Below, piece by piece: positions 1 to 16,389 of a stretch of 61,308 bases of DNA. Below the pieces are notes generated by a model. The model saw nothing but the letters and a program-made list of their open reading frames with translations. It was not told the origin of the DNA and searched no databases. Numbering within the stretch: the first letter of the stretch is position 1; each line of letters starts with the position of its first letter. Both the position numbers and the translations under genes were made by a program. The stretch lies in the IMG/VR virus record IMGVR_UViG_3300010383_000012; one strand, given 5' to 3'. The stretch comes from a virus.

Positions 1-55
1 AGAACTCGTCGTGCGCGGCGTTCCATTGCAACGGCTTGCGCCAGTTCGCCGGCGA
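1..55. repeat. Terminal overlap, identical to 61254..61308 (circular-contig closure)
   Basis: agaactcgtcgtgcgcggcgttccattgcaacggcttgcgccagttcgccggcga occurs at both ends, and a coding frame runs through the junction. Confidence 0.9.
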
Positions 56-223
56 GGTTCGGCGACGCGGCGCGCTTGGCCCCCAGTTGATCGCGGTGCC
101 GCCTGCGAAGCGCGCGTTGCGTGCCTCGGCGTAGCAGTGATCGCAACCGGGCCCAACCTTCTGGCAACCTTCCCACGGATTAAACGTGTGGTCGGTCCAT
201 TCGATTTTGCTGTTTTCGCTCAT
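1..223 (-). CDS. Gp37/Gp68-family (DUF5131) protein, 5' portion; continues at 61253..60391 across the junction (361 aa in total)
   Basis: ATG at 223-221. Translation MSENSKIEWTDHTFNPWEGCQKVGPGCDHCYAEARNARFAGG... joins in frame to ...QWNAAHDEFF of ORF 60391..61284. IEWTD..NPW.GC...GC..CYA is the family N-terminal signature. Confidence 0.8.
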   Translation of the reverse strand, partial: MSENSKIEWTDHTFNPWEGCQKVGPGCDHCYAEARNARFAGGTAINWGPSAPRRRTSPANWRKPLQWNAAHDEF

Positions 224-519
224 CGTTTTCCGCCCCTGCAGAAAATCCAAGTGACGTAATGCCCGGGGCGGCCGTCCGTCGACACGTTCGGAGACTCAGC
301 GCACACCACCTGAACCATCACCAGCTTCTGCGGGATGTTCGGCGGTGAGATGGTCCACAGCGAATAGTCTTCGCTGACCTCGCCATATTGCGCCTCGCCT
401 GGCGGCGCGTTCAAATACTCGAAAGGCGCTATCTGAACCGCTGTCTGAGCGTCGCTGACCAGCGGGCAAAGAGCCGCGACGGCTATGAGGAGGCGCCTAA
501 GAACCTGGATGGCAGTCAT
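220..519 (-). CDS. Small secreted hypothetical protein (N-terminal signal peptide)
   Basis: 99-aa ORF with hydrophobic N-terminus RRLLIAVAALCPLVSDAQ. ATGA overlaps with both neighbouring genes suggest translational coupling. Confidence 0.5.
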   Translation of the reverse strand: MTAIQVLRRLLIAVAALCPLVSDAQTAVQIAPFEYLNAPPGEAQYGEVSEDYSLWTISPPNIPQKLVMVQVVCAESPNVSTDGRPGHYVTWIFCRGGKR

Positions 520-1556
520 TGAGAGTCCTTTGCGCGAGCAGAGATCGCATCATGGATAGCTCGTAAATCGTCGTCAGACGGTTCTCGCATTAGCAGCAGC
601 ATCAGCGCGCAGGGGTTATCCGCGATTCGGCTAACGCCGTGAACGCGCGGCAGTGTCACCGCCTCGTCTGCTTGCTCGCTGGCGCGCGGAAGGTCATGAA
701 TCGCCTGCGTCCACCGCCGAACGAAGCTCTGCTCGACTTCAGGATCGGCGGCCATTGGCAGCGGCGAGTGCTTCGGCTTTGCCGCCTGCTTGGTGCGGAT
801 CTTCGCGACCGTCTCAGGCACGCTGATGCGCGCGAGCTCGGCCTCGCCGGCCGCGTGCATGTCCAGTCCGTTTGCAAGGCACAGCGCAGCGAGCGTCACC
901 ATCACGCCGCCCACCTCTTGGAACCTCTCACCTGTCGGCCGGGACCACGTGTAATCGACCAGCGCGTGCGCTTCCTCGCGGGTCATGCCGCATGCCTGCA
1001 CCAGCTCACCGGCTTCTTCGAAGAAGCGGTGATTGCGCTCCAACGTGTCCGCGGCGATCTCAGCGCCGAAGCACTCGAGCATCCACGGTTGGACTCGCGC
1101 TTGAAACGGAGCCCGTGAAACAGCCGATTGCTCAGCCAGTACGTCGCGAACCGCCGCAACGAAGTTTTTCACCGCATCGGGCTTGTGGCCTTCGCGGAAG
1201 TGGCGCCTGCCGATAGACACAATCCGCTCATCCGTCAAACCTGACTGCGGTGCCGCCGCGCGGCGGTAAAGCGGCGTCCAGAAGCTGCGGCGCGTGTCAC
1301 ACATGCGCGAGTCGCTATCCATGATCGGTCCTTCGAACCCGCCGTCGCTGCGATACCGAACCCACGCCACCGGTTTCGCCTCTTCAGTCGCCTCAGCGCT
1401 GGCGGTGTCGTGGGCTCGGAACTTGGCGGCGACGCGCAATGCCTCGTCGACTTTTTCCTGAGAGACCAGGCCGCCTGCGACGAGCATGCGCAGTGCAAAC
1501 GCTTCGCTCGACTCAGGCTTCAGATCGCTCTGCACGCTGGGTGTATTGGAGGTCAT
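516..1556 (-). CDS. Hypothetical protein with a MazG-like / dATP-dGTP pyrophosphohydrolase-like central domain
   Basis: 346 aa. The segment ERNHRFFEEAGELVQACGMTREEAHALVDYTWSRPTGERFQEVGGVMVTLAALCLANGLD resembles the EExxE...E/D helical MazG core. AAAGGA lies upstream of the ATG. Confidence 0.45.
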   Translation of the reverse strand: MTSNTPSVQSDLKPESSEAFALRMLVAGGLVSQEKVDEALRVAAKFRAHDTASAEATEEAKPVAWVRYRSDGGFEGPIMDSDSRMCDTRRSFWTPLYRRAAAPQSGLTDERIVSIGRRHFREGHKPDAVKNFVAAVRDVLAEQSAVSRAPFQARVQPWMLECFGAEIAADTLERNHRFFEEAGELVQACGMTREEAHALVDYTWSRPTGERFQEVGGVMVTLAALCLANGLDMHAAGEAELARISVPETVAKIRTKQAAKPKHSPLPMAADPEVEQSFVRRWTQAIHDLPRASEQADEAVTLPRVHGVSRIADNPCALMLLLMREPSDDDLRAIHDAISARAKDSQ

Positions 1557-1565
1557 GTCTGTCCT

Positions 1566-3509
1566 TTAGGCGGCGACGCCTGCCATCTGCTTTTCGTGAG
1601 TGAAATTCGCCCGGATCAGAGCGTCGGCCACATCCGGGCAAACGCTGTTACCGATCATGCGAACCTGCGAGGATTTCGAAAGCGGCTTGCCCTTGTGCAG
1701 CGGGTCCAGCACGTAGGAGTCCGGGAAGCCCTGCGCACGCGCGAGCTCGCGCGGCGTCAGCATGCGCATGCCGATGTCGACGATTACATAGTCCTCGCCT
1801 TGGATCGTCACCAGCCCGAAGCGGTCATGCGTCGGGATCGTGCCGAGCGGCATCCGCAGGCTCTGGCCGTCCTTGTCGTTGCCGTAGTACTTGATCAGAA
1901 ACGCCCGCACTTCGCCGACATGGCCGCCGCCGGCCGTAAGGGTCGGGATGGGCTCGCGCACGTCTTGGCCGAACTGGTTGTTGCGCAGCTTGAGCAGGGG
2001 CGATGTCACCACCGCTGTATCGGCCTTCGCCGTAACCGTTGCGGCTGGTTCGCTTACGTCGCGCGGCCGGGATTGTCCCGCGCGTCCGCCGCAGCCGACG
2101 AGCTGCGCAGTAACGATCGAGTGATGGTCGCTAGTTGTCACGGTGCCGGTCGGCACGTCTACGCCAGTTCCGACGACGCCGCCGTAGTGCTTCGCGAGAA
2201 ACGCGGAGACCACGGCGTGTTTGACCCCGCCGGCGACCGCAGTGCCGAGCGGCTTATCCAGTCCGGGCACGCGCGGCTCCTGCCCTTGGCGCTCGCCATA
2301 GCCGGTCTGGATGATCGTCGCGGATACGACTCCGAACTTGCTCCCTTGCGTCGTCACTGTATGCAACGGCGCGTCGACCTGTTGGCACGGTGTATCACCG
2401 AAGTTTTGCTTCACGATCGTTGCGGCGACGATCGCCTGCTCACCGCGGTGAGCGCCGGTCACAGTCGCGAGTGGCGCGTCGATGGCCGCCGCGCGATCGC
2501 TGCCGTGGTGCGTGACGTGCATCAAAGTCGGCGCGACGATGCCGAAGCGCGGCGCGCCAGCCATCACCGTGTGAAGAGGTTCGTCCGCAGCCTGTCCAGT
2601 ACTGTTCTCCGAAAACTTCACGATGAACGGATCTGCGCTGTTCACGACGAACTTCATGATGCCCTTGGCGATCCGCCGCAGCGTAGCGTCTTTCAGCGGC
2701 CGCGCGCGCTCGAAGATCGACGGGCACGGGATCGACCAGTCGATGCATTCGGCGGCGGTACGCCATGGCAGAAGCTTGCCGCTGCGTACCGCCTCGCTCT
2801 TCGGGTCGGCGTGCGTTGGCTGCGGCCAGACGATAGGTAGCCCGTCGCGACGCGCGAAGAAATACAGACGCTTGCGGATTGTCGGCGCGCCGAAGTCGCA
2901 CGCACGCAGCACACGCCAATCGGCCCGATAGCCGAGGCCCGCATAAAGTCGCTCCATAGGGAAATCAGCGCCGAGCGTCTCGAAGATTTCCTCTTCGTCG
3001 GGATGGCCCGGCTGCAGGCCGGTAGTGAGCGCCGCGATGAACGCGCGGAACGTGCGCCCCTTTTCAGCCTTTATCGGATGGCCGTCACCGTCGAGCGGCC
3101 CCCAGTCCAAAAATTCTTCGACATTCTCCAGCGCAATTGCACGCGGTGCCTGAAACGTCGCCCATTTCAACGTGATCCATGCGAGCCCGCGGATCTTCTG
3201 CTCGCGAGGCTTACCGCCTTTCGCCTTGCTGTGATGCTTGCAGTCGGGGCTGAACCACGCGAGCCCGATCGGCTGCTGCCCAGTCACGAATCCTGGATGG
3301 ACTGCGAACACATCCTCGGTATAGTGCGCGGTGGTCGGATGGTTGGCCGCGTGCATCGCGAGCGCCTCACCATCGTGGTTGATCGCAATATCGATGGCGC
3401 GCCCGAATGCGCGCTCAATGCCCGTGCTCGCGCCACCGCCGCCGGCGAAGTTGTCGACAATGAGTTCGCGGCCAAGGTCGAGCGGCAATGAGATCAGGTC
3501 ACGTTTCAT
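1566..3509 (-). CDS. dcm: DNA (cytosine-5)-methyltransferase with an expanded repeat-containing variable region
   Basis: 647 aa. Motif I is DNFAGGGGAS, motif IV is FSPDCKHHS, motif VI is ENVEEF, motif IX is LTPRELARAQGFPDSY and motif X is IGNSVCP. The start codon overlaps the RT stop (ATGA at 3506-3509). Confidence 0.9.
   Translation of the reverse strand: MKRDLISLPLDLGRELIVDNFAGGGGASTGIERAFGRAIDIAINHDGEALAMHAANHPTTAHYTEDVFAVHPGFVTGQQPIGLAWFSPDCKHHSKAKGGKPREQKIRGLAWITLKWATFQAPRAIALENVEEFLDWGPLDGDGHPIKAEKGRTFRAFIAALTTGLQPGHPDEEEIFETLGADFPMERLYAGLGYRADWRVLRACDFGAPTIRKRLYFFARRDGLPIVWPQPTHADPKSEAVRSGKLLPWRTAAECIDWSIPCPSIFERARPLKDATLRRIAKGIMKFVVNSADPFIVKFSENSTGQAADEPLHTVMAGAPRFGIVAPTLMHVTHHGSDRAAAIDAPLATVTGAHRGEQAIVAATIVKQNFGDTPCQQVDAPLHTVTTQGSKFGVVSATIIQTGYGERQGQEPRVPGLDKPLGTAVAGGVKHAVVSAFLAKHYGGVVGTGVDVPTGTVTTSDHHSIVTAQLVGCGGRAGQSRPRDVSEPAATVTAKADTAVVTSPLLKLRNNQFGQDVREPIPTLTAGGGHVGEVRAFLIKYYGNDKDGQSLRMPLGTIPTHDRFGLVTIQGEDYVIVDIGMRMLTPRELARAQGFPDSYVLDPLHKGKPLSKSSQVRMIGNSVCPDVADALIRANFTHEKQMAGVAA
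1785..2585 (-). repeat. About 8 tandem, roughly 33-aa degenerate coding repeats (TRD-like modules) inside the C5-MTase
   Basis: Repeated pattern [DE]xP(L)xT(V)T....(V)V...(L)....G. Examples: DEPLHTVMAGAPRFGIVAPTLM, DAPLATVTGAHRGEQAIVAATIV, DAPLHTVTTQGSKFGVVSATII, DKPLGTAVAGGVKHAVVSAFLA, DVPTGTVTTSDHHSIVTAQLV, SEPAATVTAKADTAVVTSPLL, REPIPTLTAGGGHVGEVRAFLI, RMPLGTIPTHDRFGLVTIQGE. Confidence 0.7.
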
Positions 3510-4711
3510 GCGTGCGTACCCTTATATGTTTTTGTTAGTGAACGGTCCACGGCGTGTCCGCGATCGCGAACCACGTTCGCCAACCGCGCGCGGTCGTGGT
3601 GACTGGACGGTGCCTGCCGCAGCAGACCGAAATAGCTATTCGCGAGCACATGCATGTCATCGGCCGGCGCGGCCGCGACGCGCTGCAAACCTTCTGAGGC
3701 AGTGCGGCGCCGCGTCGAGCGGCTCCACGGCTTGATCACCTGCCCGACGAAATCGACGCCGCGCGCGACCGGTTGCATGATGGTCTTGCGAGGATTCAGC
3801 CGCACGCCGAGCGCCGACGGCAGGAACGCGTCGATGTCGCGCAGCACGGCGTTCAGCCAGTCGGTGGACTCGTGCAGGAAGAGGAAGTCGTCCACATACC
3901 GGATGTAGTGCCGCGCGCCGATGACGTGCTTCGCGCGCTGGTCGAGCACGTCGAGGTAGACGTTGGCGAAGAACTGCGACGAGAGGTTGCCAATCGGCAG
4001 CCCAAGGTGCGCAGGTTGATTCATGAGGCGCTTGTGCGGCGGCACCAGCGCCATCAGCGATCGGTCTCCGCGCAGGTCGAAGTCCTCGCGCGGATCGTGG
4101 AACAGGACCGTCTCGGTCAGATCCATCCACCACGGCTCGCCGACCTTGCCCGCGAGCAGCTCGCGCAGAATCCGTTTGTCGATGCTGACGAAGAAATTCG
4201 CCAGATCGCACTTCAGGTAGTGCGCCGGACGACTCCAGTTTTGCGTGATGCTCCGGATCTTCGATTCAAGGCGTTGCGCCGCGTAGAGCGTTCCGCGTCC
4301 GACGATGCAAGCGCAACTGTCGGCGATGAACGAGCGCTCGAACCTTGGACCGATACGGTTGTAAAGCAGGTGATGCACGACGCGATCGCGGAAGTCAGCC
4401 GCCCACACCTCGCGCGGCTTCGGTCGCGTGACCACGAAACAGATCGACCGTCCCGGCGCGTAGCTTCCGTCCGTCAGTTCGTCGTAAAGGTGGCGAAGGT
4501 TACGCTCGAGGTTGGCCTCAAACGTCAGCGCGCTCGCGCTGTTGCGCTTCGTGCGCCGGCAGTCGAGGTACGCCTCGACGAGTTCGGTGAAGGTGAAATC
4601 AGCCTGCGCGTTCCAATCTGCGGACGGCACGCGCGCGGAGCGCGTTGGTCTTGTGGTTGTTGTTCTGGTTACCGTTGTTGAAGTTCTGATACCAGGCCCA
4701 ACCGCATCCAT
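3506..4711 (-). CDS. DGR reverse transcriptase (start uncertain: ATG 4711 reads through the TR; GTG 4630 is an alternative)
   Basis: RT motifs RPKPREVWAADFRDRVVHHLLY, the DGR-clade signature LPIGNLSSQFFANVYL and the catalytic RYVDDFLF. The ORF track extends to 4987, but that part overlaps avd and the TR. Confidence 0.9.
   Translation of the reverse strand: MDAVGPGIRTSTTVTRTTTTRPTRSARVPSADWNAQADFTFTELVEAYLDCRRTKRNSASALTFEANLERNLRHLYDELTDGSYAPGRSICFVVTRPKPREVWAADFRDRVVHHLLYNRIGPRFERSFIADSCACIVGRGTLYAAQRLESKIRSITQNWSRPAHYLKCDLANFFVSIDKRILRELLAGKVGEPWWMDLTETVLFHDPREDFDLRGDRSLMALVPPHKRLMNQPAHLGLPIGNLSSQFFANVYLDVLDQRAKHVIGARHYIRYVDDFLFLHESTDWLNAVLRDIDAFLPSALGVRLNPRKTIMQPVARGVDFVGQVIKPWSRSTRRRTASEGLQRVAAAPADDMHVLANSYFGLLRQAPSSHHDRARLANVVRDRGHAVDRSLTKTYKGTHA
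4615..4704 (-). repeat. DGR template repeat (TR), 90 nt
   Basis: The coding strand reads GGT TGG GCC TGG TAT CAG AAC TTC AAC AAC GGT AAC CAG AAC AAC AAC CAC AAG ACC AAC GCG CTC CGC GCG CGT GCC GTC CGC AGA TT, with 8 AAC codons. It is identical to both VRs except at adenines. Confidence 0.92.
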
Positions 4712-4847
4712 CGTGCTATCTACGTCGTCCGGCCGATCGCTCAGCGGGAAAACTGCGCCGGACCGTTCCGCACTCCGGCGGATGGTTTCCGTGGTGCGCA
4801 TGGCGGTGGCCTCGTGAGCCAGCGGCACGACCAGATTGAAAGATCGC

Positions 4848-5222
4848 TCAGTCATGGTGGCCTTGACCTCCATGAAGCGGGCGAATTGCGGCGCGACGCC
4901 ATCCAGTTGCCTGCTTGCCGATGCTCGTCGTGAGCTCGACCGCTTTGGCATAGCCGCCGCGAGAGATGAGGCGCTTGTCCATCGCAAGCCGGACCAGCAG
5001 CTCGATCACCTGAATACGCTCGAGCAATTCCGTCAAATGCACGGACTTGTCCTGTGCGACGTTCGCGCGGAACACGAGCACCGTTATTTCGATGCACTCG
5101 GCGCTGATCTTCTCGCCGATCGAACGCTTGAAATCGCGCTGCATGTTCTTGACGAGGTCGGTGACAGCGTCGAGAAGATCGTAGGCGACTTTGTAGATCG
5201 GCAGCTGTGTGTGGATGGCCAT
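4848..5222 (-). CDS. avd: DGR accessory variability determinant (Avd-like four-helix-bundle protein)
   Basis: 124 aa, basic and helical (LPIYKVAYDLLDAVTDLVKNM...ISAECIEITVLVFRAN...ERIQVIELLVRLAMDKRLIS). It sits between the target gene and the TR, as in canonical DGRs. Confidence 0.8.
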   Translation of the reverse strand: MAIHTQLPIYKVAYDLLDAVTDLVKNMQRDFKRSIGEKISAECIEITVLVFRANVAQDKSVHLTELLERIQVIELLVRLAMDKRLISRGGYAKAVELTTSIGKQATGWRRAAIRPLHGGQGHHD

Positions 5223-5239
5223 GCTGAGAAAGGACTAAA

Positions 5240-5698
5240 TTACTGAAGCACTAATCTGCGGACGGCACGCGCGCGGAGCGCGTAGGTCTTGAGGCCGTTG
5301 GTCTGGTGACCGCTGACGAAGCCCTGATACCAGGCCCAACCGGTCTCCTTCTCGTGCTGCTGGCACGACCAGTAGTAAGAGGACTGGAACTCGCCTTTCA
5401 GGTTGGCGAACAGCAGCGATTGCTCGCGCCGAGTCGGCAGCACACCGCCTTGCTCGCACGCCCACTTGACGGCCGCATGCCAGTCAACGCTTTCTGCCTC
5501 ACCGGGCAGCAGGATCAGGTGATGGCCAGCTTCGCCGTTCTCGCCGAGCACCAGACCTGCGTAGCGCTCGCCCGGCGCGAGGGTGATCGTCTGCGCATTC
5601 ACCACATACTCTGTCGTGGCGGCCTGCCTTTCGAACGCGGCGATCATTTCGCCGACCTTCGTGTGCTCGGCCTTGATGGCCTCAAGCGTGATCGTCAT
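5240..5698 (-). CDS. DGR variable protein 1 (DUF1566 / C-type-lectin-fold-like, 152 aa)
   Basis: Start MTITLEAIKAEH with GGAG upstream. Contains GGVLPTRREQSLLFANLKGEFQSSYYWSCQQ...GWAWYQGFVSGHQTNGLKTYALRARAVRRL. The VR covers the last roughly 30 codons. No signal peptide or TM segment is visible. Confidence 0.85.
   Translation of the reverse strand: MTITLEAIKAEHTKVGEMIAAFERQAATTEYVVNAQTITLAPGERYAGLVLGENGEAGHHLILLPGEAESVDWHAAVKWACEQGGVLPTRREQSLLFANLKGEFQSSYYWSCQQHEKETGWAWYQGFVSGHQTNGLKTYALRARAVRRLVLQ
5253..5342 (-). repeat. DGR variable repeat 1 (VR1)
   Basis: The 90-nt ungapped alignment to the TR has 11 mismatches, and every one falls where the TR coding strand has A. Confidence 0.92.
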
Positions 5699-5727
5699 TG
5701 CGAACGCTCCAGAAAATGGATGAATGA

Positions 5728-6087
5728 TTAAATGGACAATCTGCGGACGGCACGCGCGCGGAGCGCGTCGGTCTTGTGGTTGTCGTGCTGGCCACCGTAG
5801 CCGAAGTACTGACACCAGGCCCAACCGCTGTCGTCGGTATCCTCCTGATTGCTCCAGTACGCGGCCTCCTTGAACTGGTCGCGGCAGTTGGCAAACAGCA
5901 TTGCCTGCTCGACGCGCGTCGGCAGATCGCCGCCGATGCTCTTCGCCCATGCGAGCTGCTCGGACCACGACGCGCGCTCGTTGTCGCCCGGCAGCAGTAC
6001 GATGTGCTGCACGTCGCCGTTCTTGTCGCCGATCGCGCCCACATAAACTTCGCCTTCGGACAGCGGTGGAATCTGAAGTTGCTGCAT
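5728..6087 (-). CDS. DGR variable protein 2 (DUF1566 / C-type-lectin-fold-like, 119 aa)
   Basis: Start MQQLQIPPLSEG with GAGGAAA upstream. Contains GGDLPTRVEQAMLFANCRDQFKEAAYWSNQ...GWAWCQYFGYGGQHDNHKTDALRARAVRRL. It is a paralogue of variable protein 1, and the VR lies at its 3' end. Confidence 0.85.
   Translation of the reverse strand: MQQLQIPPLSEGEVYVGAIGDKNGDVQHIVLLPGDNERASWSEQLAWAKSIGGDLPTRVEQAMLFANCRDQFKEAAYWSNQEDTDDSGWAWCQYFGYGGQHDNHKTDALRARAVRRLSI
5738..5827 (-). repeat. DGR variable repeat 2 (VR2)
   Basis: The 90-nt ungapped alignment to the TR has 10 mismatches, all at TR adenines. The substitution pattern differs from VR1. Confidence 0.92.
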
Positions 6088-6099
6088 TCTGGTTTCCTC

Positions 6100-6130
6100 A
6101 AAAAATCGGGCGCTATGCGAGCCGCCCTTC
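6100..6130 (-). terminator. Intrinsic terminator/attenuator hairpin directly upstream of DGR target 2
   Basis: Minus strand: GGGCG-loop-CGCCC followed by a T6 run. It is a near copy of the hairpin at 6176..6204. Confidence 0.55.
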
Positions 6131-6175
6131 AAAACCAGCGCCTTGGACGGGACGCTGGGCGGGGGTAAATCGGTC

Positions 6176-6204
6176 AAAAAGCGGGCGCCGAACTGGCCGC
6201 CCTT
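6176..6204 (-). terminator. Intrinsic terminator/attenuator hairpin (first of a tandem pair)
   Basis: Minus strand: AAGGGCGGCCAGTTCGGCGCCCGCTTTTT. Confidence 0.55.
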
Positions 6205-6225
6205 AAAACACACGACGCGCTGATG

Positions 6226-6414
6226 TCAGCGTGCCGTACAGCCCAGTTGAGCAGCCAGCGCGCGGATGCGCTGGACAACGCGATCAGGGAGCGCGATCGC
6301 CTGGCCGCCGTGCAGCGCCGCGAACGCGGGCCGCAGGATCTCGCGGTCAGTCGGAGGGATGTCCGCGTGCTCGAGCCGCTTCAGCGCTTCGAATAGCGGT
6401 TCGTTCGTGGTCAT
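6226..6414 (-). CDS. Hypothetical protein (62 aa)
   Basis: ATG at 6414 overlaps the upstream stop (ATGA). The ORF track start at 6426 is an alternative. Confidence 0.45.
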   Translation of the reverse strand: MTTNEPLFEALKRLEHADIPPTDREILRPAFAALHGGQAIALPDRVVQRIRALAAQLGCTAR

Positions 6415-7187
6415 TGGGACCTCCACTCGGCACCGCGCACGACGCGCCCGACTGGTTCGAGCACGAGTACTTCCGACTCCTTCTCGGTGCGCACGAGCAG
6501 GTTCGCGCGGCGTTGCGCCTTCTCAAGCGTCCGATGGCGCTTCGGCGCTGCATAGCGACCGATGGTCACGAAAACCTGAGACGGCACGAATTCCGCATCC
6601 ACGAGCGTCAATTCGTCGATCTTCCGCTCGAGCGCGGCGTTGTTCGCGCGCAGTTTAGCGATGACCTCTTTTTGCGATCTAACTTCCGCGAGCGCCGCAT
6701 CTCGCTCGGCGGTGGTCTCACGATGCTTGTCGCATTCCGCGTTGTATAGGTCCCTGTATGAGCCCCAACACTGCACAGCGTTGTTGTGCTGTTCGCGCAG
6801 CTCGTCGCGCTCCCGGGTAACCGCCTGCAACTGCAAGGTGAGATCAAGCGCTTCCTCTACCGTGCTCAGCTCGGCATCGGTTACTTCCGGTTTCTCGACC
6901 TTCGGCGAGGCAGCAATTGCGGCTGACACGATCGCACCGACGAACGTCTTCCGTGGCGAAGTTGCGGTATCGGCGGTCGGCTCAACAACGTCCTTGCGGG
7001 TCAGCCAATAGTGGTATTCCGTGTGCCGCGGGCCGGTGCCTTCCAGCTTTCGCTCAAGGATGCCCTCGCTGACCATCGCGTTAAGCTCGCGGGACACGTG
7101 CAACCTGTCCATGCCGATACGCTCAGCGATCGTCTTTGCCGTCGACTGCATCACCGTGCCGAGGTACTTCTCGATCTGATCTCTCAC
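6411..7187 (-). CDS. Hypothetical protein with an N-terminal winged-helix-like domain and a central coiled coil
   Basis: 258 aa. TAKTIAERIGMDRLHVSRELNAMVSEGILER looks like a wHTH. A long heptad-like region follows (LQLQAVTRERDELREQ...AKLRANNAALERKIDEL). GTG start overlaps the upstream stop. Confidence 0.5.
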   Translation of the reverse strand: MRDQIEKYLGTVMQSTAKTIAERIGMDRLHVSRELNAMVSEGILERKLEGTGPRHTEYHYWLTRKDVVEPTADTATSPRKTFVGAIVSAAIAASPKVEKPEVTDAELSTVEEALDLTLQLQAVTRERDELREQHNNAVQCWGSYRDLYNAECDKHRETTAERDAALAEVRSQKEVIAKLRANNAALERKIDELTLVDAEFVPSQVFVTIGRYAAPKRHRTLEKAQRRANLLVRTEKESEVLVLEPVGRVVRGAEWRSQ

Positions 7188-7657
7188 GCTGCCTCCACAT
7201 AGCCGTACACCACCAGATCAGGCGCCGTTCCGTTGTTGAACACAGCGTCGACAATGCGCCCCATGTCCGCGCCTTCCGGCAACTTCCCATTCGCAACCCG
7301 AGCTACGGTCCGTTGCGCGATCTCCTGCGCGCGCTCACGAGTCAGGTCGATCCACACCCGCTGCCCAACTGCAGGCACGTGATCGGGTGCGTATTGGTCG
7401 CGTCCCCAATCGACGTGCCGCAAATTCGGCTCGCTGCACGACGGGCACTGAAGCCCGAACGCCGTTACGCCGTCGCGGCTGTTCCAGATCCGCTCCCGGT
7501 GACCGCACGCGCACGCGTACCACATCAGGCAGAAGGCCTCGGCGTGCTGATGGCCTTGCGGGGTCACGGCACGCACGTCCGGTGCAGCGGTGCCCGACGA
7601 CGCCTTTTTCTTTGCGGCGCGCTCCGCGGCGCGCCGGAGTTCACGCGTTTTGCTCAT
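7184..7657 (-). CDS. Hypothetical Cys-rich (zinc-ribbon-like) protein
   Basis: Start MSKTREL (ATGA overlap with the exonuclease stop). Contains CLMWYACACGH...LQCPSCS. Confidence 0.5.
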   Translation of the reverse strand: MSKTRELRRAAERAAKKKASSGTAAPDVRAVTPQGHQHAEAFCLMWYACACGHRERIWNSRDGVTAFGLQCPSCSEPNLRHVDWGRDQYAPDHVPAVGQRVWIDLTRERAQEIAQRTVARVANGKLPEGADMGRIVDAVFNNGTAPDLVVYGYVEAA

Positions 7658-8271
7658 GCCGCGGCCGCCAGATGCTTCTTGATGCCGTAATAGACGGCTT
7701 TGCAAGCCATCACATCGACGTTGGCGTTGTGTGCGCCTTCGAGCTTGCTGCCGGTAAAGAACTCGTATGCCTCTGCGAGGTTCGGCGACTTGGCGTGTTT
7801 ACGGCCGGCGGCGAGCATCTTTGCGGTAGGCGGAAGATTGATGATCTTCGTGCTCTTGCCTTGCGTGCAGAACGCCGGCGCGGACTTCCACGTGTCGTGG
7901 AAGGGATCGTCGTGATCGATCTCGCGGAAGTACTCGATGCGCAACATGCGGGCGTCGAACGATTCGTTGTGTCCCGCGCGCATCGCTGCGCGCTTCCACA
8001 TGTCGGTGAACTGACCGATCGCATCACGGCGGTCGATGCCTTCGGCCATCGCGCGCTCGGTCGTGATGCCGGTGAGCGCGGCCAGTTCGTCTGGAATCGT
8101 CCAGCCGTCCGGCTTGATCAGGACATCCATCGTCGCGATAACGTTGCCGTTGTGTTCGTCGCACAGCTCTGCGGCCAGTTGCGTGACGTAAGGCTGCGAC
8201 GGATCTTCCGAGGGCAACCCCCACTGCGGCAGGCCATTGGTTTCGGTGTCGTAGAAGAGAATGAGGTCCAT
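7654..8271 (-). CDS. DnaQ-like DEDDh 3'-5' exonuclease
   Basis: Exo I is FYDTETNG, Exo II is GHNESFDARML and Exo III is HNANVDVMAC. Confidence 0.85.
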   Translation of the reverse strand: MDLILFYDTETNGLPQWGLPSEDPSQPYVTQLAAELCDEHNGNVIATMDVLIKPDGWTIPDELAALTGITTERAMAEGIDRRDAIGQFTDMWKRAAMRAGHNESFDARMLRIEYFREIDHDDPFHDTWKSAPAFCTQGKSTKIINLPPTAKMLAAGRKHAKSPNLAEAYEFFTGSKLEGAHNANVDVMACKAVYYGIKKHLAAAA

Positions 8272-8301
8272 GCTGTGTCCAGGTGATGTGGGTTGAGCCG
8301 A

Positions 8302-10116
8302 TCAGGCCGCTTCGGCGACGGCTGCGCTGCCAATCAGTTCGCCCTGCTCGATCCAATGGGCCCGGGTAGTCGGAGGCAAGCCTTCCGGCAACTTCTTGAG
8401 GGTGCCGAACACGAGCGCCGTGCTGAGCTCTCCCTGGGTGGCCATGTCGTCGAGCAGCGCGAGCAGATCGCCTCGCCCCGTCAGGTCCAACACGTCGAAG
8501 CGATCGAACGACACGATGCGCGACTCGGAGATAACCGCGATCGTCAGCGCGAGCAGCGCATCCACGCGGTACTTTTCGGATTCACTGAGCAGCGCATACA
8601 GCCGGCCGCCGGCGCGGATCGTCATGTCCGTGCCGATTTCTGGAACCGCCCATTGCGCGAATGCGGCGAGCGAGCTCAGTTGGTGATTGATTGGCGCGAG
8701 CGCCTTGGCCAGCATGTCGCCGGGAATTCCGTCCGGTGCCAATGCGTCGGCGATCGCAAGCCATTGCGCGATGTCCGTGTGATATTCGGCAGCCTCTTTC
8801 GTCTTTCCAGCGGCGGCCTCGGCAGCGCGCCTCGCATTGCTGAGGCTGTCGAGCTCGCCGCGGAGCTTGTTGCGCTGCTCGGTTGCAGCCGTGACGCTGC
8901 GACGCGCGGCGTTGACATCTTCTTCGGTGACCTTCTCGACGTCGGCCTGCAGTTGCAGCGTCTTCGACGCCGCGGTGGCGGCCGCGAGGTCGCGTTCGTC
9001 GTTCTCGACGGCGCGCTTCATCAGATCACGAGCTTTCTTCAACTCCGGCAGCTTGGCGCGCGCCTCAGCGTCGCCGCCCGCGCCCGGCTCGCCGAACTGG
9101 TCGACGTACGCGCTGTACGCATTGGCCGCAGTGGAGAAGTCGTAGTTGTCCCAAGGCAGGATCGCGCCGGTGTCACGCTGCACGACACCTTCGGTGTCTG
9201 CGATGACCGCTGAGAACTCGCGAACCGCATTGGCGAGGTCGTGTACGAGCCCTTCGCGCGGCGCGTCGCCGGCGCGCTGCTGCGCGTCGAGCAAAGCCGC
9301 TTCAGCCGACGCGAGATGCTCCTTGTCGGTAGCCAGCTTCGCTTCAATGCGCGTGATGCTCTGCGCGAGGTCCGCGTTGTTCGCAGCGCTGGCCGTGGCC
9401 GCCGTGTAGGCGCGGTGTTTCTCCTGTACGACGCCGACCGCGGTGTTTGCTTCGGAAAGGCGCGCCTCAGCTGCCGTCAAAGCTTCCGTCGCGCTCGCGA
9501 GCTTCTTTGCGTCGAACGGCGGCACCTCCGCTTCCCAGCCGTCTGCCTTGTCTTTGCCCCACTGCTCGCCCGTCACCGTGCGCCACGCGCCCTTCGCTTC
9601 GCGCGCCTCGTCCTCGGCGAACTTGACCGCTGCGGGGAAGCCCGAGCGCAGCATCGGGATCACCTTGTCGATCTTCTTCGCGTCGCAGCCGCGCTCGAGC
9701 ATCAAGCCCTTCACAACTTCTGGCGTGGCACGCAAGCCGGTGAGGTCGAACAGCAATGTGCGGCGTTCGTCGGCCTTCAGACTGGCGAATCGCGACGGCT
9801 CCAGCACGTACGGAAGAGCAGCTGTGTACACCGCGAGGCCGACGTGCTTGCCATCGGGCAGCGTGAGGGACGCCGGGCCCGCGTCCGTCTCGATGGCGAC
9901 GATCGACTTCTTTGCGCCCTCGGTGATGATCGACGGGTAGTCTTTCTTGAGTGCAACGCGCGACACATCGCCGGTCAGCGCGGCGTTCACTGCCTCGCGA
10001 AGGCTGCTCTTGCCGGCGCCGTTCGGGCCCGCGAAGATGGTCACCGGCGTGTCGAGCTCGAGGTCGACGGCGCGTGCGCCGACGAAGTGCTTTGCGGAGA
10101 TGTGCTGGATGCGCAT
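8302..10116 (-). CDS. SMC/SbcC/Rad50-like AAA ATPase (recombination-associated)
   Basis: 604 aa. Walker A is FAGPNGAGKSS. A long Ala/Glu-rich coiled-coil middle follows. The C-terminal Walker B/D-loop is IVSFDRFDVLD. Confidence 0.75.
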   Translation of the reverse strand: MRIQHISAKHFVGARAVDLELDTPVTIFAGPNGAGKSSLREAVNAALTGDVSRVALKKDYPSIITEGAKKSIVAIETDAGPASLTLPDGKHVGLAVYTAALPYVLEPSRFASLKADERRTLLFDLTGLRATPEVVKGLMLERGCDAKKIDKVIPMLRSGFPAAVKFAEDEAREAKGAWRTVTGEQWGKDKADGWEAEVPPFDAKKLASATEALTAAEARLSEANTAVGVVQEKHRAYTAATASAANNADLAQSITRIEAKLATDKEHLASAEAALLDAQQRAGDAPREGLVHDLANAVREFSAVIADTEGVVQRDTGAILPWDNYDFSTAANAYSAYVDQFGEPGAGGDAEARAKLPELKKARDLMKRAVENDERDLAAATAASKTLQLQADVEKVTEEDVNAARRSVTAATEQRNKLRGELDSLSNARRAAEAAAGKTKEAAEYHTDIAQWLAIADALAPDGIPGDMLAKALAPINHQLSSLAAFAQWAVPEIGTDMTIRAGGRLYALLSESEKYRVDALLALTIAVISESRIVSFDRFDVLDLTGRGDLLALLDDMATQGELSTALVFGTLKKLPEGLPPTTRAHWIEQGELIGSAAVAEAA

Positions 10117-10231
10117 GTTGCTACCTTTGGTATGTGGTGGAGGCGTGCTGGCGGCTGATTGCGGCGTAGATTCGTACGCGGGAGAAACCGCGCTTCATAC
10201 CCGCGGCTGGCCAGCCGCCCCCGTTGAACGT

Positions 10232-10840
10232 TTATTCGACGATTGCCATCTGGCCGCGACCGCTGCGGCGCGCGGCCGGATCCTTTTCCGCCGCCATCTG
10301 CGCGGCTATGTCATTGGCACCGTCGCCGTAGTCGGCGTCCTCGTCCTCTTCTTCGCCGCCATCGGGCTCGACCGTGAGATAGATGCTCTGGCCGAGCACC
10401 GCGCTCAGCTTGGCGATGGCATCAGCATCGGGATCGCTGACCTGCACGCGGAACTCGACGATGCAGCTGCCGCCCTCCTGCGCTGTGATAACGAACTTGT
10501 TCACCTTGGCAAGACCGAAGACGATGTCGCTCTTTTCGTCGATGCCGTGATGCACCACCACCCGAGCGCATTCGTATTTCAGGTCCCACTTGATCGGGCC
10601 CATCGGCGGGTTCTTCAGCACAGTGAATGGCACCGATGCCGGATCGAAGTCCTGCTGCGGCGTGTCCTCGCGACGGTACAAGTCCGTCTTCAGCGTCGGG
10701 GAAAACTCCGCGAGCGCTTCGTTCGGCAACGTGGCGCGGAAACGCAGGTCGATACCGTTGACCTTCTCGTCGCCGTGCACCTCGCGGCGCAGATTCAGGT
10801 GCACGAACTCAACGAGCTCGTGGTTGCGTTCGAATGACAT
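10232..10840 (-). CDS. Hypothetical protein with an acidic C-terminal tail
   Basis: 202 aa with a strong GAGAGGAG RBS. It lies between the RecT gene and the ATPase gene. The acidic tail is GGEEEDEDADYGD. Confidence 0.55.
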   Translation of the reverse strand: MSFERNHELVEFVHLNLRREVHGDEKVNGIDLRFRATLPNEALAEFSPTLKTDLYRREDTPQQDFDPASVPFTVLKNPPMGPIKWDLKYECARVVVHHGIDEKSDIVFGLAKVNKFVITAQEGGSCIVEFRVQVSDPDADAIAKLSAVLGQSIYLTVEPDGGEEEDEDADYGDGANDIAAQMAAEKDPAARRSGRGQMAIVE

Positions 10841-10870
10841 TGCAGTGCTCCTCTCTGGATAAACGCGGGA

Positions 10871-12046
10871 TTACTCGACGGTCGGGCTCGCGCCGCGAGC
10901 GCGGCGGCCGGCGCGTTCGAATTTCTGCCGGAGGCCGGTGGCGAGTTCCGTCAAGCGCTGCTCGGCGTCCGGATCCGGCACGTCGGCGATCAGCGCTATC
11001 GCTGCCGTCAATGCATCGCTGCTGTCGGCGGAATTCAGGCGCTCGGCGATCTGCGATTCAGAAAGCGGCGACGCGGACTGAGCTTCGGTCCCACTCTCGG
11101 AAACCGCCTGCTTCTGATCCGTAACCTGCGTCTCGTCAGTCGCAGCGTTCTGACTTGCTTCCGCTGCCGTTTCGCGCGGTGAGTCCGTCGCCGCCACATC
11201 AGTCGCGGCTGCTTCGGCGCGGCGCGCGGCTGGCGATACCGCTGCAGCGCGCAGCGATTCGACGTCGACCGCGAACTTGCCATCGGCTGTCGGTTCGAGG
11301 TCGATAATGTCCTGCGCCTCTTCAGCGGTTTGCAGCCCCATCAGAAGCTCGGGTGCATAGAGCTTCCCGAAGAAGGCCGCAGATCGGTATCGAAGCATCA
11401 CCTCGGGCATCGTCATCCACTTGCTGCCGTTCTTCGTGAGCCAGCCTTCGTCGATCGCCATCTGGATGCTGATCGTCGGCGACTCGAGCCGCGCGCCAGT
11501 CTCTTTCTCGATCGCCCAGGCGACGCAGGTCTGATGGCGAACCTTCACCTTGCGCTCGACCGCGACCTTCTTGGCCCGGCCGCCATTCGGCTGGTCTTGC
11601 CATTCGGTCGCGGTGTAGGTCACCTCTTCCAGTTCACCGGGCTTGCTCAGGTCAAATCGCAGCGGCGAGTACTTCCCGCACGAATTGATCGCAGCGATGA
11701 TGAATTGCGAGGACCACGACGGACGCCCTTCGACGATGTAGAGGTTCTGCATCACCATCAGCGGGTCAGCGCCCATGCGCTGCGCCATGTTCAATGCGAC
11801 GACACAGTTCGAAAGGCCGGAAGGGTTGTCTTCGTAGCCTGTGACCTTTCCGTACTCCTTCACCTCCGTGCGCGCGCGGTACGCGACGGGCACCAGGGTC
11901 GAATGCGTGAGCATCTTTGCCGCACGCTGCATGAGCTCGAAAGACTGGCTGTTCGCAAATCCCATCTGCACTGCCGGCAGGTTGGCGTCTCGATTCGGTT
12001 GTTGCGCGACGTCCTGAAGCGATCGCGCCTGAGTTGGAGCGTTCAT
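10871..12046 (-). CDS. recT: RecT-family single-strand annealing protein
   Basis: 391 aa. The core ...NLYIVEGRPSWSSQFIIAAINS...MPEVMLRYRSAAFFGKLYAPE... is typical of RecT. It is adjacent to a nuclease gene. Confidence 0.75.
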   Translation of the reverse strand: MNAPTQARSLQDVAQQPNRDANLPAVQMGFANSQSFELMQRAAKMLTHSTLVPVAYRARTEVKEYGKVTGYEDNPSGLSNCVVALNMAQRMGADPLMVMQNLYIVEGRPSWSSQFIIAAINSCGKYSPLRFDLSKPGELEEVTYTATEWQDQPNGGRAKKVAVERKVKVRHQTCVAWAIEKETGARLESPTISIQMAIDEGWLTKNGSKWMTMPEVMLRYRSAAFFGKLYAPELLMGLQTAEEAQDIIDLEPTADGKFAVDVESLRAAAVSPAARRAEAAATDVAATDSPRETAAEASQNAATDETQVTDQKQAVSESGTEAQSASPLSESQIAERLNSADSSDALTAAIALIADVPDPDAEQRLTELATGLRQKFERAGRRARGASPTVE

Positions 12047-12059
12047 CTGTTACCCCTTT

Positions 12060-12860
12060 TTATTCGTGGTAGATGCAGCTGTTCCAGCGCGAGCAATACG
12101 TCTTGCTGCACAGGTACGACTGCGGATTCGGTGGGAAAAGGCCAGCGCGGAACATGTCGGCCGCCAACTGGATCAGGCCCGGCGTATCGTCATTGCCGAT
12201 CAGCACGCGGCGCGCGTCAAAGAGAGGGCTCACTGCGGTCGGCGCCTTCGATGTGGTGCCGAGCGCGATGATCTGCGCGCCCGCCGTGTGCTCGCCCGTT
12301 GTCTGCTCGTACATGAGCTGGTACGTACCGGTCTGCGCCGAGCGCGCCTTGATGTTGGCCTCGCCATTGGCGACAACGCGCGCGCCGGTCTTCACGTCCG
12401 GAATGATCGTGCCGTCAACGCCCTTCGCGACGCGAGCACGGTCCATCGTGCCGGTCAGCGTGATAGTCGTGCCGCCGCCGCAATCGATCTGCAGCGGCTC
12501 GAGTGCCATCTCGACGGCCGTGTACGTGAACTGCGGCGCGATTTCCGTGCAGTACTTCGTCGTGAGCGTCAGACCGATGCGCTCCGCTTCCGCGAACCGG
12601 ATGTTGTCGTCGGAGAAATCGACGTCGTATTCCGGGTGGTGCAGCGTGTCGATGAATGCGCCGGCAGCATCGTCCGGCGTGATCTCGTTGCCGTTCAGGC
12701 GTGCCGCGTCAAACGCCGCGGTGCCGGCGTGAACGCTCGTGCCGAGCAGCGCGCGCAATCCCGCTGGTTTCCGCATGCCAAGCAGATGCTCGCCTTCCCA
12801 TGCGTAGGCGCAGTCGAAGAACTTGCCGAACGACGAGGCGCGGATGCGGAGGTCGCTCAC
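12060..12860 (-). CDS. PD-(D/E)XK (Cas4/RecB-like) exonuclease with Cys cluster
   Basis: GTG at 12860 overlaps the upstream stop (GTGA). Motifs are GTMDRARV, IIPDVKTG and QTGTYQLMY. One N-terminal Cys (FFDC) plus C-terminal CSKTYCSRWNSC suggests an Fe-S cluster. The ORF track start at 13079 is probably too long. Confidence 0.7.
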   Translation of the reverse strand: MSDLRIRASSFGKFFDCAYAWEGEHLLGMRKPAGLRALLGTSVHAGTAAFDAARLNGNEITPDDAAGAFIDTLHHPEYDVDFSDDNIRFAEAERIGLTLTTKYCTEIAPQFTYTAVEMALEPLQIDCGGGTTITLTGTMDRARVAKGVDGTIIPDVKTGARVVANGEANIKARSAQTGTYQLMYEQTTGEHTAGAQIIALGTTSKAPTAVSPLFDARRVLIGNDDTPGLIQLAADMFRAGLFPPNPQSYLCSKTYCSRWNSCIYHE

Positions 12861-13006
12861 ACTGCACCTCGCGACGCGAACATCTGCAGGCGCAGTACCG
12901 ACGTTTCGGACTGGTCCCAGTCCCGCGCGATGTACATAATCGCGAAGACCGCGAGCACTGCGATCGCGAACGAGATGTTCGGGTGCTTCGCGTAGAAACG
13001 GTCCAT
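12857..13006 (-). CDS. Small membrane protein (49 aa)
   Basis: MDRFYAKHPNISFAIAVLAVFAIMYIARDW... has one TM segment. Its stop overlaps the nuclease start. Confidence 0.4.
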   Translation of the reverse strand: MDRFYAKHPNISFAIAVLAVFAIMYIARDWDQSETSVLRLQMFASRGAV

Positions 13007-13014
13007 TGCGCGGA

Positions 13015-13203
13015 TCACGCCAGACCTCGCACGTTCGTGTAAGTGAAGACGCGCGCCACGTTGCGCGGAACATAACCACCGCCGATGCGCACGCGCGGCG
13101 TCACGCCGCGACGAACGAGAGCGGCCTTCGCGGCCTCCTGACGGCGCCTCGTGCGCTCGCACAGCATTTCGTACTTCAGATCGAGAACGCGGTCTTTCAG
13201 CAT
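13015..13203 (-). CDS. Hypothetical small basic protein (62 aa)
   Basis: ATG at 13203 is preceded by GAGG. Confidence 0.4.
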   Translation of the reverse strand: MLKDRVLDLKYEMLCERTRRRQEAAKAALVRRGVTPRVRIGGGYVPRNVARVFTYTNVRGLA

Positions 13204-13394
13204 GTCGGCCTCACAGAAACAAACCACAGAACAGTTGCCATAATCACCATCGCTGCAGTGGCAGCGACGAACGCATATCCAACGTCGATCACGCGGTAGT
13301 CAGCCTCGGTGAGCTGGCGTACCGATTCGCGCTGCATTCCGAGCACACGCCGCATGACGCGGCCGGCGAGGCGGTTGAGGATGTAGCGGTTCAC
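13197..13394 (-). CDS. Small membrane protein (65 aa)
   Basis: GTG at 13394. The C-terminal TM segment is GYAFVAATAAMVIMATVLWFV. The start is uncertain (the track gives 13439). Confidence 0.35.
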   Translation of the reverse strand: MNRYILNRLAGRVMRRVLGMQRESVRQLTEADYRVIDVGYAFVAATAAMVIMATVLWFVSVRPTC

Positions 13395-13464
13395 TTGCGC
13401 CTCACCATCCGGCAAAGGCACCAGGCGACGAACGCCCACACAAGAAAACTGATTGCTAAACCGC

Positions 13465-13635
13465 TCATTGCAGCACCTGTGAAAACGAAAATGGCGCGGG
13501 AAAGTCCAGGTAAGCCTCGTCCTTCATGCGACGGTCGAGAAAATCGCTGTACGACTCTGGCTCCGACGGATCGACCTCTTCCGCGTCGCGTGTGAGCAGA
13601 TAGTCATGATTCGGGTCTTTGTCGACGTAGCGCAT
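13465..13635 (-). CDS. Hypothetical acidic protein (56 aa; below the ORF-track cutoff)
   Basis: AGGAG lies 6 nt upstream of ATG 13635. Translation is MRYVDKDPNHDYLLTRDAEEVDPSEPESYSDFLDRRMKDEAYLDFPAPFSFSQVLQ. Confidence 0.4.
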   Translation of the reverse strand: MRYVDKDPNHDYLLTRDAEEVDPSEPESYSDFLDRRMKDEAYLDFPAPFSFSQVLQ

Positions 13636-14676: not shown

Positions 14677-14705
14677 GGCGTCACCTCCTACACGTGCCCG
14701 TTAGT

Positions 14706-15020: not shown

Positions 15021-15060
15021 GTCCGTGCTCCCGCTGTGTGTTGTGTGCTGCGTTGAAAGA

Positions 15061-15098: not shown

Positions 15099-15138
15099 AT
15101 CGTTGAACGATAAATTTTTTTATCGAAACTTCCGGGCG

Positions 15139-15166: not shown

Positions 15167-15185
15167 AGCGTGCTACTGGACGTAG

Positions 15186-16285: not shown

Positions 16286-16308
16286 AACCCGAATTAAAAC
16301 CGAAAACT

Positions 16309-16382: not shown

Positions 16383-16389
16383 CAACGCC

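Follow-up and report, generated by a model that had tools for sequence, protein, structure and literature searches.

What is the function of two small, hypermutated proteins that a phage encodes outside its virion module? The question is raised by IMG/VR virus record IMGVR_UViG_3300010383_000012, a viral DNA of 61,308 nucleotides (the window), in which a diversity-generating retroelement (DGR) occupies positions 3506-6087 of the minus strand and carries its two target genes at 5240-6087. To our knowledge, prokaryotes and their viruses have no other natural means of hypermutating specific proteins than DGRs, and in phages experiments have established what DGRs do only where the target is a receptor-binding tail protein. 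The targets in the window are two tandem paralogues with a predicted C-type-lectin (CLec) fold, and sequence comparison places their cassette in a family that is common to Magia-like temperate phages and prophages, mainly of Betaproteobacteria. Across this family the targets are encoded apart from the structural genes. We propose, with a confidence that falls just short of even, that the targets are non-virion, cytoplasmic variable binders for phage-host or phage-phage conflict and not tail-fibre tips.

The DGR is transcribed in the order short target, long target, Avd accessory protein, template repeat (TR) and reverse transcriptase (RT), all on the minus strand. The short target, which is the first gene of the cassette, has 119 residues (5728-6087, with its ATG at 6087), and the long target has 152 residues (5240-5698, with its ATG at 5698). 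Both genes end in a variable repeat (VR) that stops no more than 12 nt from the stop codon. VR2, at the 3' end of the short target (5737-5828, minus strand), is 89% identical to the 92-nt TR (4614-4705, minus strand; the reference copy of repeat family D1), and VR1, at the 3' end of the long target (5252-5343, minus strand), is 86% identical to it. All 10 mismatches between VR2 and the TR face template adenines, as do 11 of the 13 mismatches in VR1, where the remaining two are found at the two repeat ends. With 21 of the 23 TR-to-VR mismatches in the window at adenine positions, the two tandem DGR targets of 152 and 119 residues that a first-pass annotation had read from the open reading frames (ORFs) are borne out. 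The TR translates to GWAWYQNFNNGNQNNNHKTNALRARAVRRL and contains eight AAC codons, and codon analysis indicates that approximately 10^14 protein variants can be reached. A GC-rich segment of 30 nt at the 3' end is identical in the TR, VR1 and VR2 and resembles, by its sequence, an initiation-of-mutagenic-homing (IMH) element; three copies occur in the window and none in 100 shuffles. A third VR, or a VR within the fibre genes, was considered and ruled out, given that this 30-mer is found across the 61-kb window only in the TR and the two VRs. Because the segment occurs nowhere else in the window, the fibre genes are not targets of this DGR.

The remaining components of the retroelement are equally recognizable. 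The accessory protein (4848-5222, minus strand; 124 residues) reaches 49.8 bits against the Pfam bAvd model, whose cut-off is 40, and matches the NCBIfam model DivGenRetAVD with an E-value of 1.5e-12, under the equivalog cut-off of that model. The RT (3506-4711, minus strand; Pfam RVT_1, E = 1.4e-12) contains the motifs IGNLSSQ and YVDD and thus displays both the (I/L/V)GxxxSQ and the YxDD signatures of the DGR clade, in which the SQ dipeptide serves as a criterion for DGR RTs (PMC3521204). The start of the RT is uncertain; the ATG at 4711 yields a protein of 401 residues and places the TR inside the 5' end of the RT gene. Protein identity to the RTs of related loci ranges from 64 to 90%, and nucleotide identity to the Magia locus that covers its RT gene is 75%. 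The stop codon of the RT gene overlaps the start codon of a C5 cytosine DNA methylase gene (ATGA, 3506-3509), and from this overlap the RT appears to be translationally coupled to the methylase (1566-3509, minus strand; 647 residues; Pfam DNA_methylase, 82 bits). The same neighbour, a methylase homologue directly after the RT, was seen in the phages vB_E192a and vB_Sb_QDWS as well as in at least 12 of the 80 IMG/VR loci. The methylase of the window is unusually long, and its Pfam match is split into three stretches. With every defining sequence feature present, 3506-6087 almost certainly represents a bona fide, complete and apparently functional DGR.

Where does this DGR reside in the phage genome? 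The window begins and ends with an exact 55-bp terminal direct repeat (1-55 and 61254-61308), and the contig is therefore a circular (or circularly permuted) complete phage genome of 61,253 bp. A cI-like S24 repressor gene (15488-16285, minus strand) faces a cro-like gene (16354-16722, plus strand). The leftward arm proceeds from cI through an exonuclease, RecT, an SbcC-like ATPase, an RNase T-like exonuclease, a helix-turn-helix (HTH) regulator, the DGR and the methylase, and then reaches the integrase gene (57109-58239, minus strand) across the contig junction. The virion module, with terminase, portal, sheath, tape measure, baseplate and fibre-like genes, lies on the plus strand at 27-52 kb, and its fibre-like genes map to 47171-49078 and 50175-52145 (all by PHROG annotation). 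The first-pass annotation had put the targets about 40 kb from the fibre genes and on the opposite strand. The strand is correct and the distance is 41 kb in window coordinates, but because the genome is circular, only 14.3 kb separate the fibre genes from the targets around the circle. In an integrated prophage, the fibre genes would fall at the opposite end from the targets. When the DNA of the structural half was searched against phages in GenBank, no match was obtained.

The location of the targets is conserved far beyond this genome. Our survey comprised 141 loci, 80 of them fetched from IMG/VR and 61 found in GTDB genomes, and the search patterns combined the conserved scaffold with VR-adjacent motifs from a seven-sequence alignment (A1), so that DGR-less relatives are probably under-sampled. 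Megablast located the cassette at 74-75% nucleotide identity in the Burkholderia phages Magia, vB_E192a and vB_PL1, tblastn located it in the Shewanella phage vB_Sb_QDWS as well, and relatives were present on at least 365 IMG/VR contigs. In the 80 IMG/VR loci, the order of short target, long target, Avd and RT is nearly always kept, and the genes always share one strand. Wherever the available DNA suffices, the cassette follows the Exo-RecT-AAA-HTH genes and precedes a methylase or integrase gene; the whole order from Exo to RT recurs in Magia, vB_E192a and many of the IMG/VR and genome loci. The 61 GTDB loci, which come from Burkholderiales, Rhodocyclales, Nitrosomonadales, Neisseriales and a few other groups, show the same arrangement. 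The placement of the targets between the recombination genes and a DNA methylase on the same strand, as first annotated, thus holds for the window, and the targets occupy the non-structural leftward arm in all 141 loci. Within 10 kb of the cassette, these loci contain nothing homologous to the terminase, portal, sheath, baseplate or fibre proteins of the window phage, and in Magia, vB_E192a and vB_Sb_QDWS the targets are likewise set apart from the structural module. The number of VRs was scored in 85 loci and amounts to two in 44, three in 34, four in one and one in six, the last being truncated loci. Where an extra target copy is present, it either adjoins the others as a tandem or is separated from them by 2-10 kb on the upstream side, in many cases immediately after cI, and all VRs, including the remote ones, point in one orientation. 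Approximately 15 genome loci contain a target with no Avd or RT within 10 kb; either the RT is remote in these cases or the protein persists without diversification. Tandem arrays of three or four long-form-like paralogues were also observed in four loci of Undibacterium, Chitinilyticum and a betaproteobacterial metagenome-assembled genome, some of them without Avd-RT within 10 kb.

The cassette family bears the imprint of active adenine-directed mutagenesis. Counted on the true 86-nt repeat register, 200 VRs from 86 loci differ from their TRs at 2,450 positions, and 2,378 of these mismatches (97.1%) are found at adenines, which make up 30% of the TR. The corresponding value for 33 remote VR copies is 96.4%. 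Entropy in the alignment of the long form rises to 3.0-3.4 bits at ten VR positions (126, 128, 129, 131, 133-136, 138 and 139), compared with a mean of 1.12 bits for residues 1-119, and the family-wide peaks coincide with AAC codons. The variable positions, at which Tyr, Gly, Asp and Ser dominate, alternate in the C-terminal part (126-139) with an essentially invariant scaffold of W123, Q125, F127, G130 and Q132. Both Gln codons contain adenine yet stay fixed, and purifying selection therefore maintains a folded, working protein. A comparison of two GenBank entries of 47,902 bp each, OK094664 and OP650936, is particularly informative: 14 differences occur in 5.9 kb, and all 14 lie in the VR of the short target and face TR adenines. 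To judge from the two sequences, these differences record directly that retrohoming took place recently in a cultured relative. OK094664 is the Shewanella phage vB_Sb_QDWS (VR at 1855-1899 of the fetched locus), and OP650936 is deposited as 'UNVERIFIED_ORG Hujiaoplasma phage zrk29-1' with a Tenericutes bacterium as host. Both entries apparently represent one phage whose VR has been rewritten, and the Tenericutes host assignment looks doubtful.

What kind of protein is being diversified? The two targets are paralogues, as first annotated, with 47% identity over 116 residues (BLASTP, E = 4e-36), and the shared motifs LLPG, GGxLPTRxEQ, YWS, GWAWxQ and RARAVRRL are invariant in an alignment with their Magia and vB_E192a orthologues. 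With 20.5 and 25.1 bits, the matches of the two targets to Pfam Lcl_C/DUF1566 (PF07603; E = 2.4e-5 for the short target) are weak and do not reach the gathering score of 34.9. Several close homologues have a precomputed PF07603 match, and NCBI names them DUF1566 proteins. The long target has 1,172 homologues, the best-scoring 120 of which span 141-177 residues, mostly 151-157; the named ones among these 120 are called 'DUF1566 domain-containing protein' and come mostly from Paraburkholderia, Burkholderia, Ralstonia and Caballeronia. Clustering at 50% identity yields 1,225 homologous clusters with E-values of at most 1e-3. NCBIfam offers no functional lead for either target.

Structure prediction agrees with the DUF1566/CLec-like appearance of the targets that had been noticed from the sequence. 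The AlphaFold models are of high confidence (pLDDT 94.1 and pTM 0.78 for the long target; pLDDT 97.7 and pTM 0.89 for the short target), and both display two helices followed by C-terminal strands in a C-type-lectin topology (DSSP). In Foldseek searches, the best Protein Data Bank (PDB) match of both models is the C-terminal domain (CTD) of Legionella Lcl (8q4e_A), with a target-normalised template-modelling (TM) score of 0.67 and E-values of 1.9e-5 for the long target and 5e-4 for the short target (query-normalised TM 0.73). A profile search of the PDB returns 8q4e at E = 6e-4 as the sole solved structure under 0.001. Further fold matches include snake-venom lectins, natural killer receptors, tetranectin, collectin CL-K1 and the Bdellovibrio fibre tip Bd2740; Mtd and proteins of the formylglycine-generating enzyme (FGE)-sulfatase type are absent among the top 50 structural matches. 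Both targets are thus, on these models, stand-alone C-type-lectin/DUF1566 (Lcl_C-like) folds. The short target is a bare CLec/DUF1566 domain of approximately 115 residues. In the long target, the domain is preceded by a linker and by an N-terminal amphipathic helix (residues 5-25), whose hydrophobic residues L5, I8, V15, I19 and F22 are spaced 3-4-3-4 and are mostly nearly invariant. This helix could mediate oligomerisation or docking. The invariable pairing of the two forms, together with heterodimeric snake-venom lectins among the fold matches, points to a possible short:long hetero-oligomer.

The first-pass annotation had found no export signal and no anchoring domain in the targets, and both observations stand. 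Neither target has a hydrophobic N-terminal stretch, a membrane segment or an N-terminal lipobox (maximal 19-residue Kyte-Doolittle hydropathy 0.61), and the long form adds to the bare domain only the helix within its first 25 residues or so. Homologues were also checked for a constant fusion to fibre domains. The 150 best family representatives, with a median length of 155 residues, contain no fibre domain, real signal peptide or membrane span, and the small number of longer proteins can be traced to tandem duplication or, apparently, to artefactual gene fusion. Membrane- or signal-like flags in 12 family representatives and one close homologue were rejected, as they are due to Ala-rich N-termini or to an internal 'HVILLPG' strand.

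When is the cassette expressed? The first-pass annotation assigned it to an early operon driven by the leftward promoter PL. The lambda-like gene order agrees with this assignment, but two terminator-like hairpins precede the cassette, and the operon can be called PL-driven only with read-through. The first hairpin with its U-run (6101-6133, minus strand; -14.3 kcal/mol in a custom scan) lies 18 nt upstream of the short-target ATG, and the U-run extends into the ribosome-binding site. The second (6176-6208, minus strand), which was called by RNA folding and the custom scan, lies 93 nt upstream of the same ATG. The two form a direct repeat of 76% identity (family D4), and this similarity suggests a duplicated element, not two independent terminators. 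Hairpin calls combined RNA folding with a custom scan that included control windows. By that scan, 41 of 113 related loci have a terminator-like structure ahead of the targets, compared with 7 of 109 control windows, and Magia has an annotated terminator at the equivalent place upstream of its first target. A simple consensus scan for promoters and terminators over positions 1-17,500 gave no excess over shuffles and missed the hairpins upstream of the cassette. Transcription of the cassette thus probably depends on read-through or antitermination, as far as the sequence indicates.

How might these elements act together? In line with the established DGR mechanism, the RT-Avd complex would copy the TR RNA into complementary DNA (cDNA) with misincorporation opposite template adenines. 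The cDNA would then replace the 3' terminal 90 nt or so of each target gene, which would randomise about ten codons (eight of them AAC in the template) and leave the interleaved scaffold fixed. The targets would act as minimal ligand-binding modules that consist either of a bare lectin domain or of the same domain behind an amphipathic helix. As cytoplasmic variable binders, they could recognise a variable factor of the host or of a competitor during early infection or induction. We favour such a role outside the virion because the targets are strictly outside the structural module across the family, because they are encoded on the strand of the recombination genes and integrase, and because they share this strand with an early-type methylase gene whose reading frame overlaps that of the RT. 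It is also favoured because diversified copies adjoin the repressor gene and because the short form has no attachment domain of any kind. The timing of expression is deduced from gene order, and the cellular location and the ligand of the targets are likewise deduced. An intracellular (anti-defence) function, as raised in the first-pass annotation, is plausible.

Several observations weigh against a role outside the virion. The absence of a signal peptide, which had been put forward as an argument against a virion role, carries no weight, as virion proteins do not have one either; Mtd and other tail-fibre proteins are assembled in the cytoplasm. Only the gene position and the missing anchoring domain argue against a virion role. 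The context survey used the window's own proteins as probes, and unrelated structural genes can be missed in unannotated loci. With terminator-like hairpins ahead of the cassette, straightforward co-transcription with the early genes is in doubt. The targets contain no effector domain, and PADLOC gives no match for the targets or Avd and only generic RT and methyltransferase models for the RT and the methylase. The N-terminal helix of the long target resembles, in its model, the neck helix of collectins and tetranectin (1htn, 4yli) and could dock or oligomerise an extracellular lectin. In long fibre-like phage proteins, distant DUF1566 relatives are found as the C-terminal tips (PHROG 4245, with a profile of 583 positions, and BFVD matches of 594-1,341 residues, among them an S74-peptidase fibre), and the Bdellovibrio fibre tip Bd2740 is a good structural match to the targets. 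In all phage DGRs that have been characterised by experiment, the diversified protein is a receptor-binding component of the virion, such as BPP-1 Mtd (PMC5758913, PMC8144416). Even the proximity of the cassette to Exo and RecT may reflect the mechanics of retrohoming and not the function of the targets, because work on the reconstituted BPP-1 DGR indicates that the lagging-strand template is where its cDNA enters and that ExoI is inhibitory (PMC12875486). By the same reasoning, phage recombination genes might assist retrohoming.

One alternative is conventional tropism switching, in which both small lectins, made in the cytoplasm as virion proteins are, dock non-covalently on the tail fibres or baseplate as exchangeable, diversified receptor-binding tips, the long one via its helix. 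The precedent of the characterised phage DGRs and the position of the DUF1566 fold at the tips of fibre-like phage proteins and of a Bdellovibrio fibre both point in this direction. The conserved helix with its 3-4 hydrophobic spacing could dock or trimerise as in collectins, variable positions dominated by Tyr, Gly, Asp and Ser are expected of a recognition surface, and the missing signal peptide fits a virion protein. We nevertheless consider detachable fibre tips rather unlikely. Tail genes never adjoin the targets in the 141 loci or in three annotated cassette phages, the targets invariably share their strand with the recombination and lysogeny genes, and the RT gene overlaps an early-type methylase gene. 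Moreover, extra diversified copies stand directly downstream of cI, which is an unlikely site for a late structural gene, and the short form contains no recognisable attachment domain.

The copies near cI could instead indicate that the targets are expressed in the lysogen as variable sensors or decoys that bind proteins of superinfecting phages or other invaders and supply the host with a pre-diversified repertoire. The remote VR copies reside on the repressor strand, 0.5-1.5 kb downstream of cI, a position that is occupied in lambda by lysogen-expressed genes of the rexAB type. That the protein can persist alone, as the loci without nearby Avd-RT suggest, would also be compatible with sensing, and two reports document DGRs that diversify putative conflict-system sensors in bacteria (PMC10907252, PMC10053308). 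Against this scenario, which we judge improbable, the targets have neither an effector or signalling domain nor a partner gene that resembles one, PADLOC finds no match, and the window has no remote copy, its two targets being located approximately 9.5-10.5 kb from cI behind the terminator-like hairpins. Lastly, the targets could be soluble lectins that are freed at lysis and bind variable surface glycans (O-antigen or exopolysaccharide) on neighbouring cells or debris, thereby masking decoy receptors or promoting adsorption. The closest solved structure, the Lcl CTD, does come from a protein that NCBIfam calls a collagen-like adhesin, a possible oligomerisation helix would provide the multivalency typical of glycan lectins, and a phage O-antigen acetyltransferase homologue between the fibre genes implies that surface glycans matter. 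This proposal is purely speculative, however, since nothing in the locus points specifically to it, and we know of no phage mechanism of this type; we regard it as very improbable.

If the targets are cytoplasmic variable binders, how far could such a function extend? It is possible, although we consider it doubtful, that hundreds of temperate phages, mainly of Betaproteobacteria, carry a DGR-driven repertoire of minimal, antibody-like cytoplasmic binders (a 115-residue lectin fold in two to four paralogues), which would be expressed early or in the lysogen and would neutralise or sense variable proteins of host defence or of rival phages. Such a repertoire would be an adaptive system of counter-defence or exclusion that works by targeted hypermutation, the first of this kind to be encoded by a phage, and the cassette may also exploit the co-encoded RecT and Exo to install mutagenised cDNA. 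Since this large, conserved and demonstrably active family diversifies nothing but tiny lectin-fold proteins outside the virion module, it can be tested directly whether phages also use hypermutation inside the cell, for example against variable defences or competing phages, and Magia, vB_Sb_QDWS and vB_E192a are available as cultured members. Their very small size and natural diversifiability also recommend the targets as binding scaffolds. Should they prove to be detachable fibre tips, they would show that a DGR may have its targets at a great distance from the virion module.

How does the cassette relate to known DGRs? Its closest counterpart belongs to the Burkholderia cenocepacia phage Magia (MT701587, genes 44-47 and 57), where a syntenic cassette occupies the same place between Exo-RecT-AAA-HTH and integrase. 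Magia differs in that a third, remote target (gene 57) heads the leftward arm, whereas the window holds two VRs, and in that no methylase directly follows the RT. The Magia announcement named the 'relatively short' lectin-fold genes 47 and 57 as potential targets and suggested for them generic adaptation or host range, nothing further (PMC7883833). Magia gene 46 (154 residues; 13689-14153 of the fetched locus, QPB08727/8 region), which is annotated as a 'hypothetical protein', is the long-form target, and its VR mismatches are mostly at adenine. Multi-VR DGRs of Ralstonia, Burkholderia, Sideroxydans and other genera were already listed in 2012, and we take them to be probably members of the same cassette family. 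That list comprises Ralstonia pickettii, Burkholderia thailandensis, B. glumae, Sideroxydans, Collimonas, R. solanacearum and Pseudogulbenkiania (PMC3521204). The survey of Roux et al. classed viral targets as 'structural' or 'unknown' and did not discuss a group of short lectin targets (PMC8144416).

In Bordetella phage BPP-1, the mtd-avd-TR-brt locus has the same target-Avd-TR-RT order, adenine-specific mutagenesis and AAC-rich TR as the window, and likewise combines a C-terminal VR in a CLec fold with a GC-rich conserved 3' end of the repeat. Its target Mtd is a trimeric tail-fibre tip of 381 residues that is encoded with the tail genes, whereas the window has two targets, of only 119 and 152 residues, in the early/lysogeny arm and of the DUF1566/CLec2 type. 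The best structural match, the Lcl CTD of Legionella pneumophila (8q4e, PF07603), shares only about 20% sequence identity with the targets. Lcl is a large collagen-like adhesin and is not known to be diversified by a DGR. A VR in a DUF1566-type CLec domain, as in the window targets, defines category d of Wu et al. 2018 (DUF1566/DUF823/Fib_succ_major with CLec2 VRs), about half of which are short, domain-only proteins and which is exemplified by Legionella LdtA (PMC5758913). LdtA is a surface lipoprotein with an export signal, in contrast to the window targets and their family representatives, which are phage-borne and have none.

The only published precedent that we know of for a non-structural phage DGR target such as those of the window is ORF 84, the second DGR target of Quimbyvirus ("Quimbyviridae", Bacteroides phages). 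It is encoded on the opposite strand, far from the structural module and among DNA methyltransferases, and Benler et al. 2021 interpreted it as taking part in phage-host conflict (PMC8008677). The Quimbyvirus DGR also diversifies a structural-module protein, whereas the window DGR has no structural target. Moreover, Quimbyvirus and the window phage differ in host phylum and phage lineage, and the comparison made here is one of gene position. DGR targets need not be surface proteins, because multicellular bacteria diversify putative antigen sensors that are apparently intracellular components of conflict systems (PMC10907252). In contrast to those components, the window targets are bare binding domains on a phage.

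A non-structural role had been called poorly described for phage DGRs, and this is only partly right in view of the precedents in Magia (PMC7883833), category d (PMC5758913) and Quimbyvirus (PMC8008677). Already known are the cassette as annotated in Magia, short DUF1566-only targets and a non-structural phage target. New are the demonstration that this arrangement forms a large, conserved and active family confined to the non-structural arm, the paired architecture of a short and a long form, the repressor-proximal target copies and the recurrent upstream terminator.

Several neighbouring genes of the window deserve mention. The upstream neighbour of the targets is an ORF of 66 residues (6226-6426, minus strand), which is preceded by a gene for a winged-helix regulator with a coiled coil (6411-7187, minus strand; weak Pfam HTH_Crp_2 match, MarR-like by PHROG), and homologues of both are found directly upstream of the targets in many related loci. 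The recombination block (7654-13079, minus strand; Pfam and PHROG) encodes the RNase T-like exonuclease, the SbcC-like AAA ATPase, the RecT-like annealing protein and the exonuclease. An ORF of 101 residues (15186-15491, minus strand) overlaps the 3' end of the cI-like gene by 4 nt and begins with a clear signal-peptide-like sequence, MMRALIATLFAVFSSFALA; it has no family match and is likely a secreted moron expressed in the lysogen. On the opposite strand between the two fibre-like genes, an O-antigen/O-acetyltransferase homologue (49083-50171, minus strand; PHROG 3333, E = 2e-41) is a probable serotype-converting gene, and acyltransferases occupy comparable places in Magia and vB_Sb_QDWS. 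In the rightward arm, a gene for a protein of 833 residues (17439-19940, plus strand) shares approximately 71% nucleotide identity over window 17948-19726 with genes found in many Pseudomonas aeruginosa phages, and these genes are annotated variously as SNF2 helicase or N4/N6 DNA methylase. By this similarity, it appears to be a second methylase-type gene of the phage.

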